DNA of 64,000 bases from Escherichia coli (GTDB lineage: Bacteria; Pseudomonadota; Gammaproteobacteria; Enterobacterales; Enterobacteriaceae). Position numbers and translations under genes: made by a program. A model generated the notes under the pieces. The model did no database searches. It was given only the letters and a program-made list of their open reading frames with translations, and had not been told where the DNA came from. Location of the stretch: the NCBI RefSeq assembly GCF_003334385.1, contig NZ_QOWN01000002.1; one strand, 5' to 3'. Shown piece by piece: positions 1 through 8,399 of the stretch (position 1 is its first letter; each line of letters starts with the position of its first letter).

Positions 1-1
1 G

Positions 2-1027
2 ACCAATAATTATCTCGGTTTAACCTTTAATCATGATGCCATCAGCGAAGGTCAGGCCGCGTTAGCGGCCCAAGGTACCGGCACCACCGGTTCTCGTATG
101 GCAAACGGCAGTTATGCGCCGCACCTGGCGTTAGAGAAAGAGATTGCCGAGTTTTTCAATCGCCCTACCGCTATCGTTTTTTCAACCGGTTATACCGCTA
201 ATTTAGGCGTCATCAGCGCACTTGCCGACCATAACGCCGTGGTGTTACTGGATGCCGACAGCCACGCCAGTATTTATGACGCCTGTTCTCTCGGTGGCGC
301 GGAAATTATTCGTTTCCGCCATAACGATGCTAAAGATCTGGAACGGCGCATGGTTCGCCTCGGTGAACGGGCGAAAGAGGCGATTATCATCGTTGAGGGT
401 ATCTACAGCATGCTCGGTGACGTTGCGCCGTTAGCGGAAATTGTTGATATCAAACGTCGTCTCGGTGGTTATTTGATTGTCGATGAAGCGCATTCGTTTG
501 GCGTGTTAGGCGCAACGGGGCGCGGACTGGCTGAAGCTGTCGGCGTTGAAGATGATGTGGATATTATCGTTGGCACCTTCAGTAAAAGTCTGGCCTCGAT
601 TGGCGGTTTTGCTGTCGGTTCGGAAGCGATGGAAGTGCTGCGCTACGGCAGCCGCCCGTATATTTTTACCGCCTCTCCTTCTCCGTCCTGCATTGCGACC
701 GTGCGCTCGTCGTTAAGAACTATTGCCACACAACCAGAGCTGCGGCAAAAGCTGATGGATAATGCCAACCATCTGTATGGCGGTCTGCAAAAACTGGGTT
801 ATGAGTTAAGTTCACATATTAGCCCGGTAGTGCCGGTAATAATCGGTTCGAAAGAGGACGGTTTACGCATCTGGCGCGAGCTTATTTCGCTGGGCGTTTA
901 TGTGAATCTTATCCTGCCACCTGCCGCGCCTGCAGGCATCACGCTGCTGCGCTGTAGCGTAAACGCTGCTCACAGTCGTGAGCAAATCGATGCCATCATT
1001 CAGGCATTTGCTACTCTGAAGCAGTAA
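2..1027 (+). CDS. alpha-oxoamine synthase family PLP enzyme (BioF/Kbl/serine-palmitoyltransferase-like); 5' end lies outside the window
   Basis: The frame is open from nt 2 (TNNYLGLTFNHD...GTTGSRMANGSY), so the ATG at 98 is internal. Family motifs present: NNYLGL, DEAHSFGVLG and GTFSKSLASIGGF (putative PLP-lysine codon 584-586). Stop at 1025-1027. Confidence 0.85.
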   Translation, partial: TNNYLGLTFNHDAISEGQAALAAQGTGTTGSRMANGSYAPHLALEKEIAEFFNRPTAIVFSTGYTANLGVISALADHNAVVLLDADSHASIYDACSLGGAEIIRFRHNDAKDLERRMVRLGERAKEAIIIVEGIYSMLGDVAPLAEIVDIKRRLGGYLIVDEAHSFGVLGATGRGLAEAVGVEDDVDIIVGTFSKSLASIGGFAVGSEAMEVLRYGSRPYIFTASPSPSCIATVRSSLRTIATQPELRQKLMDNANHLYGGLQKLGYELSSHISPVVPVIIGSKEDGLRIWRELISLGVYVNLILPPAAPAGITLLRCSVNAAHSREQIDAIIQAFATLKQ

Positions 1028-1033
1028 TGTGAG

Positions 1034-1060
1034 CCCGCCGTGGTGTTGCGCCACGGCGGG
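1034..1060. terminator. GC-rich hairpin between convergent genes
   Basis: cccgccgtgg (1034-1043) and ccacggcggg (1051-1060) form a perfect 10-bp stem followed by ttt. It sits between the stop codons at 1027 (+) and 1062 (-). Confidence 0.6.
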
Positions 1061-1061
1061 T

Positions 1062-6029: not shown

Positions 6030-6788
6030 TTAAGTTAAACTTCGGCGGTCAGAAACGATGGCAACCAGAGAAACCGCCTTCTGTGCCTGTTCCAGCACTT
6101 CGCTGTAGGGCGCTCTGGAATCAATCTCAAGAATTTTTGTGCCGTTATAGCCAATCTTCGACATGACACCGATTTTGTCCTGCAGCTCGGCATAGTCATG
6201 GTCAGGCTTGCGGGAGATGGCAGTCTCAATATCAATGCCCAGGCGAATAATTAATTCCGGGCGATATTGCGCCATTTGTTGGTATAAACGCCGTTCGCGC
6301 TGCGCCAGAAACATGCTGATTTTCCCGGTCGCACGTTCGACGCCAATCCCCGGTCCATCATAATAAAAGCCCGAAATTTCAGCCTGCGGGAAGCGATCGC
6401 TGACCACCAGAACGCCACTTTGCGCCAGTCGCTGAACCTTGCGTAGATTCGCCATTCTTCGCAGCGAGAAGCAGTACATAATCACCGCCGCCCATAGCGC
6501 CGGAGATTTGGTTTTCATGCTTTGGGTTTTCGAGGATTTGGCCGCCAGTCGCCGTTCCAGCCAGACGCCAACCAACGGCAATCGTTTGATTTTGTCGCCG
6601 TCTTCGCCGGAGAGCAGCCCCAGATAGCGCCGCTCGGTTTGCCAGTGTTGTTGCAGCGATTTCACCAGGTCGGTGGTCAGTGTGGATTTACCGGTGCCAT
6701 CACACCCGACCACCGCAATCAGCCCCGGAATGTAGTTGGGCTGCGGCGCGGTTGTACTATTAACAGTTTGAGTTTGTAGTGCATCCAT
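6030..6788 (-). CDS. yghR: P-loop NTP-binding protein YghR
   Basis: 252 aa. Walker A VGCDGTGKSTL, then SDRFPQ and SRKPDH motifs. Paralogous to the next two genes. Confidence 0.9.
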   Translation of the reverse strand: MDALQTQTVNSTTAPQPNYIPGLIAVVGCDGTGKSTLTTDLVKSLQQHWQTERRYLGLLSGEDGDKIKRLPLVGVWLERRLAAKSSKTQSMKTKSPALWAAVIMYCFSLRRMANLRKVQRLAQSGVLVVSDRFPQAEISGFYYDGPGIGVERATGKISMFLAQRERRLYQQMAQYRPELIIRLGIDIETAISRKPDHDYAELQDKIGVMSKIGYNGTKILEIDSRAPYSEVLEQAQKAVSLVAIVSDRRSLT

Positions 6789-6819
6789 TCGTTAAATCAT
6801 CCCCTATCCATTTTGGTGA

Positions 6820-7533
6820 TCAGGAAAGCGCGGCGTGAATTGCGCGTAGTGACGCTTGCAGAATTTCATCGGCGGGGTGTCGCCCATCCAGTTCAAGGAT
6901 CTTTGCGCCATTGAATGTCAGTTGCGGCGTAACGGCGATTTTTTCCTGTAACGCTGCCAGTTGGTGGTCAGGTTTACGCGCAAACGCGGTTTGTTCATCA
7001 ATGCCAAGACGAATCAACAATACGGGCAAATAAGATGCCATCCATTGGTACAGCTTCAGCTCGCGCTGCCTTAACATTTTTATCCAACCGTTACCGCCCG
7101 TGGTTTTTGCCAATTGCGGGCCATCAAAGCGAAACCCCGGCACTTCAACCTGCGGGTAGCGGTCGGTGATGAGCAGAAAGCCTTGCTGGCTTTTACACAA
7201 CATTTTGCGAAACTTGTACGCCCGCCAGCAGGAAAGCAGATAGATAACCAGTGCAGTAATATTGCCAGGCGGTGTTGAGGGCTTTTCGTGCACATGTGCC
7301 GCTTTACTTCGCAGATAACGCCCAAAAGGTGCGCCAATAACAGGGAGCTGTGAAATCCATTCGCCAATTCGCCCGGACGATTGCCCGAGATAAATGTGTT
7401 CTGTTGGCATTCTTGCTGCCAGTTCATTTACCAGGCTTGCCGTGAGGGTCGATTTACCTGAACCATCACATCCTACAATGGCAATAACACGCACTGGCGT
7501 GGAATTAATTATTGACATATTACGTTGATTCAC
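6820..7533 (-). CDS. yghS: P-loop NTP-binding protein YghS
   Basis: 237 aa with a GTG start at 7531-7533. Walker A VGCDGSGKSTL, then TDRYPQ and ARKPDH motifs. Confidence 0.9.
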   Translation of the reverse strand: MNQRNMSIINSTPVRVIAIVGCDGSGKSTLTASLVNELAARMPTEHIYLGQSSGRIGEWISQLPVIGAPFGRYLRSKAAHVHEKPSTPPGNITALVIYLLSCWRAYKFRKMLCKSQQGFLLITDRYPQVEVPGFRFDGPQLAKTTGGNGWIKMLRQRELKLYQWMASYLPVLLIRLGIDEQTAFARKPDHQLAALQEKIAVTPQLTFNGAKILELDGRHPADEILQASLRAIHAALS

Positions 7534-7706
7534 GAAAAACCCGGCAGTAAATAATGTATTGAATATTACGTGGTCCGTGCTCAGAATATCCGTTCAACCT
7601 TATTGTGACAATGGTTAATTGTGACATTGACCTGAATTACGCTTTCATAAAAACATATTAACCAAATAAATATTTTTAATGGATATTTAAATTAAAGGAT
7701 ATATTC

Positions 7707-8399
7707 ATGCAGTCAATAACACCTCCATTAATTGCCGTTATTGGTAGCGATGGTTCAGGCAAGTCAACGGTGTGTGAACATCTTATTACCGTTGTCGAAA
7801 AATATGGTGCTGCCGAAAGAGTTCATTTAGGAAAACAGGCCGGAAATGTCGGTCGTGCAGTGACAAAATTACCGTTGATGGGAAAATCCTTACATAAAAC
7901 AATTGAACGAAATCAGGTGAAAACAGCAAAAAAATTGCCTGGACCAGTTCCGGCGCTGGTAATTACAGCGTTTGTCGCCCGTCGCTTACTGCGCTTTCGT
8001 CATATGCTTGCCTGTCGTCGTCGCGGGTTAATTGTTCTAACCGACCGTTATCCTCAGGACCAAATTCCTGGCGCTTACGATGGTACGGTGTTCCCACCTA
8101 ACGTTGAAGGTGGTCGTTTTGTCTCATGGCTGGCAAGCCAGGAACGTAAAGCGTTTCACTGGATGGCGAGCCATAAGCCTGATCTGGTCATCAAACTCAA
8201 TGTTGACCTTGAAGTTGCCTGTGCACGTAAACCCGACCATAAACGGGAATCGCTGGCGAGGAAGATTGCCATAACGCCACAGTTAACCTTTGGTGGTGCA
8301 CAACTGGTTGATATCGATGCCAATCAGCCACTGGAACAGGTGTTGGTTGATGCAGAAAAAGCGATTACGGATTTTATGACCGCGCGTGGTTATCACTAG
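7707..8399 (+). CDS. yghT: P-loop NTP-binding protein YghT
   Basis: 230 aa. Walker [12 protein letters not shown], then TDRYPQ and ARKPDH motifs. Divergent from yghS. Confidence 0.9.

Follow-up and report, generated by a model that had tools for sequence, protein, structure and literature searches.

The stretch analysed here, referred to as the window, comprises 64,000 nucleotides of Escherichia coli contig NZ_QOWN01000002.1 (assembly GCF_003334385.1), and its positions 1-8399 match the E. coli CFSAN061772 chromosome at 100% identity, the RefSeq gene coordinates in that record being the same. These positions make up two-thirds of the E. coli sphingolipid gene cluster, on its right-hand side, a locus that probably serves sphingolipid synthesis and export through cytoplasmic phosphorylation, flipping and Lpt-type extraction of an anionic ceramide. 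The following features are found in this part of the locus.

1-1027, plus strand: 3' part of spt, the serine palmitoyltransferase (SPT) gene (codons about 50-390 and the stop), which runs off the left edge with about 49 codons absent; last gene of the putative aasR-epi-acpR-spt operon.
1030-1064, no strand assigned: GC-rich perfect hairpin of 16 bp between the convergent stops of spt and lptG2, overlapping the lptG2 stop (terminator scan and direct reading).
1062-2141, minus strand: lptG2, a second LptG-type permease; last gene of the minus-strand putative operon.
2138-3208, minus strand: lptF2, a second LptF-type permease, with ATGA coupling to lptG2.
3239-3799, minus strand: gene for a YtfJ-family periplasmic protein with a predicted cleavable signal peptide and no cysteine.
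3811-4635, minus strand: orphan gene for a cytoplasmic, all-helical protein of CHAD fold (predicted structure).
4635-5984, minus strand: yghQ, a MOP/Wzx-type flippase gene, intact here.
6030-6788, minus strand: yghR, a P-loop phosphotransferase gene, paralogue 1, with a thymidylate-kinase-like fold.
6820-7533, minus strand: yghS, P-loop phosphotransferase gene, paralogue 2; first gene of the minus-strand putative operon.
7534-7706, no strand assigned: AT-rich divergent spacer of 173 nt between yghS and yghT, a candidate control region.
7707-8399, plus strand: yghT, P-loop phosphotransferase gene, paralogue 3, divergent from yghS.

The whole locus consists of 13 genes, in the order yghO, aasR-epi-acpR-spt, lptG2-lptF2-ytfJ-like-CHAD-like-yghQ-yghR-yghS and yghT, flanked by glcC and pitB. 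A previous interpretation, the sequence-only reading, had described seven packed minus-strand genes at 1062-7533 with overlaps at 2138-2141 and 4635 and gaps of at most 45 nt, convergent with a synthase gene that leaves the left edge and divergent from yghT, and this layout was confirmed by the table of open reading frames (ORFs) and by direct reading. In the putative operon, which runs tightly packed from 7533 down to 1062, the lptF2 stop TGA shares bases with the lptG2 start ATG (ATGA, 2141-2138), the yghQ stop and the start of the orphan, CHAD-like gene overlap by one base at 4635 (TGATG), and the remaining gaps measure 30, 11, 45 and 31 nt. All eight ORFs of 1062-8399 are intact, and most of their products have accessions in common with K-12 or BL21. 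The families named in that reading were likewise found with Pfam and NCBIfam profiles (aminotransferase class I/II, YtfJ_HI0045, Polysacc_synt/MOP and LptF_LptG, the last matched twice, by LptF2 and LptG2), one protein being left without a family. The acyl carrier protein (ACP), ligase, reductase and N-acyltransferase genes that it had proposed to look for leftward are present there as acpR (ACP), aasR (fatty acyl-AMP ligase), epi (NAD-dependent epimerase/dehydratase family) and yghO.

The full-length synthase scored 599 bits on the NCBIfam SPT equivalog NF047599 (cut-off 500). It does not cluster with BioF or Kbl, a grouping that would have refuted the lipid hypothesis of the sequence-only reading: the candidate identities BioF (333 bits, cut-off 426), Kbl (297 bits, cut-off 460) and CqsA (221 bits, cut-off 428) all stayed under their cut-offs, and the model for 5-aminolevulinate synthase (ALAS) was not reached. 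Among structures of the PDB, the Sphingomonas SPT ranked first (E 4e-111), before Kbl (6e-59) and CqsA (5e-35). The SPT active-site motifs GTFSKS (with the pyridoxal phosphate lysine), VDEAHS and LLRCS (with the arginine) align with the S. paucimobilis enzyme, whose active-site residues are K265, H234, D231 and R378. On these profile and motif matches, the synthase is a true serine palmitoyltransferase. The acpR gene lies directly upstream of spt, with aasR and epi in the same putative operon, as in the Rhodobacteria-type SPT arrangement; in an spt-anchored survey of 80 loci from GTDB species genomes, with counts taken over 82 loci and within 10 kb around spt, AcpR adjoins spt in 79 loci.

The SPT accession, WP_000524970.1, is that of the BL21(DE3) enzyme, and the ACP and reductase accessions are also identical between CFSAN061772 and BL21(DE3). 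The BL21(DE3) SPT prefers acyl-AcpR, and overexpression together with the BL21 AcpR and AasR led to 3-oxosphinganine (Padilla-Gomez et al., PMC9386255). In that work, yghO and the gene of the epimerase family are given as orthologous to the N-acyltransferase and reductase genes of Caulobacter. YghO shares 43% identity with the protein in the bCerS position of a Caulobacter locus, and by orthology YghO (bCerS) and Epi (CerR) would yield dihydroceramide. The genes ECD_02850-ECD_02854 of BL21(DE3) (aca/yghO, aasR, epi, acpR and spt) constitute the same locus as the one described here; that study ends at spt, does not mention the eight genes to the right (1062-8399 here) and reports no native lipid.

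The two permeases are full-length members of the families that extract lipopolysaccharide (LPS), LptF2 scoring 318 bits on TIGR04407 (LptF, cut-off 230) and LptG2 308 bits on TIGR04408 (LptG, cut-off 240). Both align end to end with the solved LptF and LptG (E 1e-32 and 1e-42), and six hydrophobic segments were found in LptG2. E85 of LptF2 aligns with E84 of LptF, and E85 of LptG2 with E88 of LptG; these are the coupling-helix glutamates that dock on LptB. The full-length alignment, the kept glutamates and a translational coupling like that of lptFG relate the pair to the LptB2FGC extractor. In contrast, identity to the K-12 housekeeping proteins is only 28% for LptG2, over its full length, and 29% for LptF2, and neither an LptB nor an LptC gene lies nearby: no ATP-binding cassette (ABC) ATPase is encoded among the locus genes, and no LptC-family protein that could serve as a dedicated LptC2 among the 13. 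In the survey, LptG-like genes occur beside spt in 35 and LptF-like genes in 25 of the 82 loci, spanning Nitrospirota and alpha-, beta- and gammaproteobacteria. Scored against LptF2, the LptF proteins linked to spt in many phyla reach 128-179 bits (mostly 165-179); scored against K-12 LptF, they reach 73-108 bits. On these scores LptF2 appears clearly to group with spt-linked rather than housekeeping LptF; the corresponding preference of LptG2 is smaller.

In Caulobacter, LptC2, LptF2 and LptG2 were proposed, together with the flippase CC_1166, as a sphingolipid transport system (Olea-Ozuna et al., PMC11324152). According to a preprint (Uchendu, Isom and Klein, bioRxiv 10.64898/2026.04.12.717747), deletion of the three lpt2 genes is tolerated only in the absence of anionic sphingolipid synthesis, F2 and G2 co-purify, and each of them binds the housekeeping LptB. 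In its Figure 2B the preprint places the "sphingolipid operons" of E. coli UTI89 next to the Caulobacter ones; with the lpt2 results, this means that the link between E. coli spt and LptF2/LptG2 is already in the literature. Genomic context and Caulobacter genetics point to a sphingolipid rather than LPS as the probable substrate of the E. coli pair.

YghR, YghS and YghT are mutually 34-42% identical, and the motifs GxDGxGKST, DR[YF]PQ and RKPDH are invariant over 31 sequences. Two of the three, YghS and YghT, carry the RefSeq name dTMP (deoxythymidine monophosphate) kinase. Membership in that family was rejected, the proteins reaching 24-32 bits on TIGR00041 (YghR 32 and YghS 24; cut-off 83) and 19-27 bits on PF02223 (cut-off 27); E. 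coli has its own tmk gene elsewhere in the genome. When the AlphaFold2 model of YghS (predicted local distance difference test, pLDDT, 79) was compared by Foldseek, template modelling (TM) scores of about 0.55 were obtained at 13-20% identity to structures of thymidylate kinase (TMPK), archaeal adenylate kinase and deoxynucleoside kinase, and the family profile aligns weakly with TMPK over the P-loop, DRY and lid regions (E 6e-4). As modelled, the three proteins are very divergent phosphotransferases of thymidylate-kinase fold, an assignment of superfamily membership only. Their fold and their order of P-loop, DR[YF] and lid motifs are those of the thymidylate kinase/nucleoside monophosphate (NMP) kinase superfamily, whereas they differ from it in their low identity, in an extra helical segment and in their occurrence as three co-inherited, flippase-linked paralogues. 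The extra segment comprises about 70 residues inserted after the P-loop and before the DR[YF] motif, with a hydrophobic-then-basic helix among them; the proteins have no membrane segments and are net basic. Two further candidate identities were also rejected. The kinases are not orthologues of the Caulobacter ceramide kinase CpgB, which is of the DAGK/LCB5 type and not a P-loop protein, nor are they a substitute LptB ATPase, given the lack of an ABC signature, the NMP-kinase fold and the use of housekeeping LptB by Caulobacter F2G2.

An exhaustive search with the kinase-family profile returned 2,150 representatives, among which are fusions of MOP flippases with kinases and one fusion of a GT4 glycosyltransferase with a kinase, while an NTP_transf_5 nucleotidyltransferase-like domain is fused to many kinase relatives. 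In a metagenomic cluster of flippase, kinase and sulfotransferase genes, the flippase gene overlaps the kinase gene, and in Oecophyllibacter saccharovorans (Acetobacteraceae) a YghT-like and a YghR-like domain are joined in one protein of 438 residues. Beside this last fusion (9932-17691 of the Oecophyllibacter stretch) lie genes for a CHAD-like protein, a YghQ-like flippase, GT4 glycosyltransferases and a histidine phosphatase, with no spt within 10 kb. The kinase family is tied to MOP flippases outside sphingolipid clusters as well.

YghQ matches PF01943 with 42.5 bits (cut-off 28.2) and PF13440 with 30 bits (cut-off 23), and no specific NCBIfam equivalog was reached (32 versus 273). It is 26-32% identical to the product of the MOP gene located just upstream of aasR in Caulobacter-type loci, the position of CC_1166, and 63-65% identical to that of the gene directly downstream of spt in Rhodanobacteraceae; on this evidence it corresponds to the Caulobacter flippase CC_1166. 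Published work on K-12 yghQ in chlorhexidine adaptation and on yghQRST knock-outs in silkworm is uninformative on the intact locus.

The orphan protein (3811-4635) matched no Pfam, NCBIfam or PDB profile; the Pfam CHAD model PF05235 did not detect it and reached only one of 30 homologues (E 0.003), and a profile of the orphan family found no PDB chain. Its predicted model is all-helical (pLDDT 92) and was assigned by Foldseek to the CHAD fold, with the two four-helix bundles and the conserved basic and His residues of that fold seen in the predicted structure; 14 of the 58 invariant columns of the family are Arg, Lys or His. It differs from known CHAD domains (Ricinus CHAD 6qv5, Streptomyces PptA 6rn5 and the C-terminal domain of E. 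coli YgiF) in having no sequence-level match and no CYTH partner and in being encoded in a lipid cluster. The CHAD-like gene has the lowest GC content of the operon (0.45 in 4001-4500) and the highest ratio of nonsynonymous to synonymous substitution rates (dN/dS) against E. ruysiae (0.079). The YtfJ-like protein scores 200 bits on PF09695 and 212 bits on TIGR01626 and has an N-terminal hydrophobic segment ending in VQA and no cysteine. Its gene adjoins spt in Enterobacterales loci only (8 of the 82), no solved relative or functional literature was found for it, and any role given to it is a guess.

The linkage of these genes to spt was followed in the same survey. YghQ, the CHAD-like protein and all three kinases are encoded beside spt in nine of nine Enterobacterales loci, which include Escherichia ruysiae, Citrobacter, Mangrovibacter, Pantoea, Rosenbergiella, Serratia and a metagenome-assembled genome, and the same five-gene module stands beside spt in the three Rhodanobacteraceae genera Luteibacter, Dyella and Rhodanobacter. 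In the latter family the order is yghT (minus strand), yghS, yghR, a gene for an LpxO-like hydroxylase, aasR, epi, acpR, spt, yghQ and the CHAD-like gene, with all but yghT on the same strand. The kinases are related one to one, each being 55-64% identical to its E. coli counterpart versus 35-49% to the paralogues, and YghR has a 1:1 orthologue in the Rhodanobacteraceae spt clusters at 58-61% identity. Four or more gene orders with the same content were seen (E. coli, Serratia, Rosenbergiella and Rhodanobacteraceae), and the divergent arrangement of yghT and yghS is retained in E. coli, Citrobacter, Serratia, Rosenbergiella and Rhodanobacteraceae. The locus occupies the same chromosomal site, from glcC to pitB, in E. 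coli and E. ruysiae, and the proteins are also present in E. albertii.

Some neighbouring genes vary between these versions. In Dyella sedimenti, an Asp/Asn beta-hydroxylase gene (PF05118, E 1e-53; the family of LpxO) lies between yghR and aasR at 6039-6797 of its locus, which suggests that an acyl chain of the product could be 2-hydroxylated. The Serratia liquefaciens locus is flanked by dgkA, MipA-family and PAP2 lipid phosphatase genes (1416-1778 and 16281-19228 of its stretch), which may be relevant to lipid-phosphate turnover or coincidental. To the right of the E. coli locus follow pitB and then gss (8448-12101 of the window). Throughout E. coli the phosphate transporter gene pitB adjoins the putative phosphorylation module; it does not do so in the Serratia and Rhodanobacteraceae versions, and its adjacency is probably backbone synteny only.

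A comparison with bacterial spt-cerR-bcerS loci had been proposed in the sequence-only reading. The Caulobacter crescentus locus CC_1152-CC_1168 (spt, acpR, aasR, cerR, bcerS, cpgA-D, lptF2/G2/C2 and CC_1166) has the same five ceramide-synthesis genes as that of E. coli, whose five proteins are 43-55% identical to those of a Caulobacter sp. locus. Both loci have a second LptF/LptG pair, no second LptB and a MOP flippase gene beside the biosynthetic operon, with LptG2 of E. coli being 23-26% identical to the Caulobacter proteins. On the other hand, the head-group genes and LptC2 differ: none of the CpgA-D families (DAGK/LCB5-type ceramide kinase, Tam41-like protein, CDP-alcohol transferase and nucleotidyltransferases) is represented among the E. 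coli locus proteins, and in place of CpgA-D and LptC2 the E. coli locus carries three TMPK-fold kinases, a CHAD-fold protein and a YtfJ-like periplasmic protein. Of the products envisaged from sequence, a sphingoid- or ceramide-type lipid delivered to the envelope is supported, whereas alpha-hydroxyketone (CqsA-like) and glycolipid products are not. The statement that the module had no described function was wrong for part of the locus because SPT, AcpR and AasR are characterised (PMC9386255) and Caulobacter LptF2/G2 and the flippase are assigned to export, which covers LptF2/G2 here by homology (PMC11324152 and bioRxiv 10.64898/2026.04.12.717747). It stands for YghQ, the orphan, the YtfJ-like protein and YghR/YghS/YghT, on whose role in a sphingolipid locus nothing was published in the literature searched. 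What looks new is the part for head-group formation and translocation, which is unlike its characterised Caulobacter counterpart; the SPT pathway and Lpt-like export were already known.

Based on these comparisons, a probable pathway is proposed that follows the order of the published Caulobacter model, from cytoplasmic synthesis through flipping to Lpt-type extraction. AasR would load a fatty acid onto AcpR, and SPT would condense it with serine to form 3-oxosphinganine, as published for the BL21 proteins. By orthology, N-acylation by YghO and reduction by Epi could then give dihydroceramide. Next, YghR, YghS and YghT may add phosphate to the head group on the cytoplasmic side of the inner membrane, giving an anionic lipid, a step to which their fold, their fusions and their linkage point; the presence of three non-redundant paralogues suggests three successive or distinct phosphoryl transfers. 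The CHAD-fold protein could bind the phosphate-rich head group or an intermediate, and the MOP protein YghQ may flip the lipid to the periplasmic leaflet. LptF2-LptG2, powered by housekeeping LptB, would take it out of the inner membrane and hand it on in the direction of the outer membrane, and the cysteine-free periplasmic YtfJ-like protein may replace the LptC2 of Caulobacter.

A more far-reaching version is doubtful. According to this version, YghQ, the CHAD-like protein and YghR/YghS/YghT would form a new head-group module that converts ceramide into an oligophosphorylated lipid with a mono-, di- or triphosphate chain by three TMPK-like transfers, the lipid being held by the CHAD protein and then flipped and exported by LptB-LptF2G2.

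Several observations weigh against the proposed phosphorylation and export of a ceramide. The distant relatives of the kinases sit in glycan or sulfotransferase clusters, and because of this context the acceptor could possibly be a sugar, a nucleotide or another compound. The DAGK-type ceramide kinase used by Caulobacter is absent from the E. coli locus, and in the Rhodanobacteraceae clusters neither LptF2/G2 nor YghO was found within 10 kb. The CHAD assignment of the orphan derives from a predicted structure, sequence profiles having failed. No native sphingolipid of E. coli, Serratia, Pantoea or other Enterobacterales, or of Rhodanobacter, was reported in the literature searched, a search that did not include Stankeviciute 2022. 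In addition, BL21 with empty vectors gave no 3-oxosphinganine spot despite its intact locus (PMC9386255), and because of this result the genes may be silent in the laboratory.

The weakest link of the proposed pathway is the kinase substrate, and a role of the kinases in donor supply is a serious rival to it, if on balance an unlikely one. YghR, YghS and YghT would then be nucleotide or small-molecule kinases that supply an activated donor, such as a head-group precursor linked to a nucleoside diphosphate, for a transferase, or they would regulate YghQ. Their fold and motifs are indeed those of NMP/dNMP kinases, many of their relatives are fused to an NTP_transf_5 domain, and the Caulobacter head group is built via nucleotide-activated intermediates. 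However, the locus encodes no transferase that could use such a donor, the scores lie far under every dTMP-kinase cut-off, and the helical insertion of about 70 residues, with its hydrophobic-then-basic helix, is a further difference. Direct fusion of such kinases to MOP flippases argues for an action at the membrane on the substrate of the flippase.

It is improbable that E. coli carries the locus as a cryptic remnant, a block that was inherited or acquired and has since ceased to be expressed or productive. Such a decay would fit the losses observed within the species. K-12-type genomes match 4916-8399 only and carry yghO, IS5, a C-terminally truncated yghQ and then yghR, yghS and yghT, as the sequence-only reading had correctly stated; the IS5 adjoins a deletion from just past yghO into yghQ (2875-5069 of the K-12-type stretch), which takes nine genes wholly or partly (aasR, epi, acpR, spt, lptG2, lptF2, the ytfJ-like and CHAD-like genes and the 3' end of yghQ). 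In CFSAN061772, yghO is cut after about 370 nt and fused by a deletion to a gspJ remnant (10015-10566 of its stretch), and because of this truncation N-acylation is probably lost and ceramide not completed in that strain; the glc operon, sslE and most of the T2SS-beta (type II secretion system) cluster are also deleted there. About a quarter of complete E. coli genomes are without most of the locus, and the negative result with empty-vector BL21 and the lack of any E. coli sphingolipid report would likewise fit a remnant. In contrast, among 5,426 complete E. coli genomes, 4,751 contain part or all of 1-8399 and 4,096 contain 80% or more of it; 4,069 have the yghO-to-spt block to an extent of at least 80%, and in about 75% the locus as a whole reaches this completeness. 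Against E. ruysiae, dN/dS is 0.017-0.079 for the seven cluster genes that align without gaps (yghT, 0.048), within about 0.02-0.08 and thus in the range of the housekeeping gene gss (0.019); lptG2 and the ytfJ-like gene, whose alignments are gapped, gave 0.070 and 0.084 in a comparison with another E. coli only. The cluster genes are under strong purifying selection. The intact state of the eight ORFs of 1062-8399, most with accessions shared with K-12 or BL21, the common site in E. coli and E. ruysiae and the conservation of the gene set in Citrobacter, Serratia, Pantoea and others also speak against a remnant.

Features that could bear on expression lie at the two ends of the minus-strand putative operon. 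The hairpin at 1030-1064 is likely a bidirectional terminator. GC content falls to 0.38 in 7501-8000, around the yghS/yghT spacer, versus about 0.52 in the flanks, and the spacer at 7534-7706 could be a silenced or regulated promoter region. It contains one weak sigma-70-like match on the minus strand (7611-7583); the promoter scan gave no excess of matches (8 versus 10.3 expected from shuffled sequence), and an Rfam scan of 1-10300 found no RNA family match.

That the minus-strand operon is an LPS or polysaccharide system, as its RefSeq names imply (among them "LPS biosynthesis protein" and dTMP kinase), and adjoins spt by accident is very improbable: LptF2 and LptG2 do exceed the NCBIfam LptF/LptG equivalog cut-offs, YghQ is a generic MOP/Wzx protein and the kinase family occurs elsewhere in glycan-type clusters with GT4 glycosyltransferases, but this set of genes remains next to spt across four or more rearrangements and in two gammaproteobacterial orders, LptF2 is about twice as similar to spt-linked LptF as to the housekeeping protein, the essential lptFG genes are already present elsewhere in E. 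coli, the Caulobacter Lpt paralogues are genetically tied to sphingolipid, and no glycosyltransferase is encoded in the E. coli locus.

Envelope lipid biology has E. coli as its reference organism, and the textbook lipidome of the species was worked out in K-12, the strain that lost nine genes of this locus wholly or in part. In its head-group part the locus departs from Caulobacter, the one system studied so far, with three conserved kinases, a CHAD-fold protein and a flippase that are kept together as a block in two bacterial orders. Should the more far-reaching version with an oligophosphorylated lipid hold, most natural E. coli, together with many other Enterobacterales and Rhodanobacteraceae, would be able to equip the outer membrane with a new, strongly anionic class of sphingolipid that has been invisible to K-12-based lipidology. 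An anionic outer-membrane sphingolipid could affect polymyxin susceptibility, serum and bile resistance and host recognition in both pathogens and commensals.

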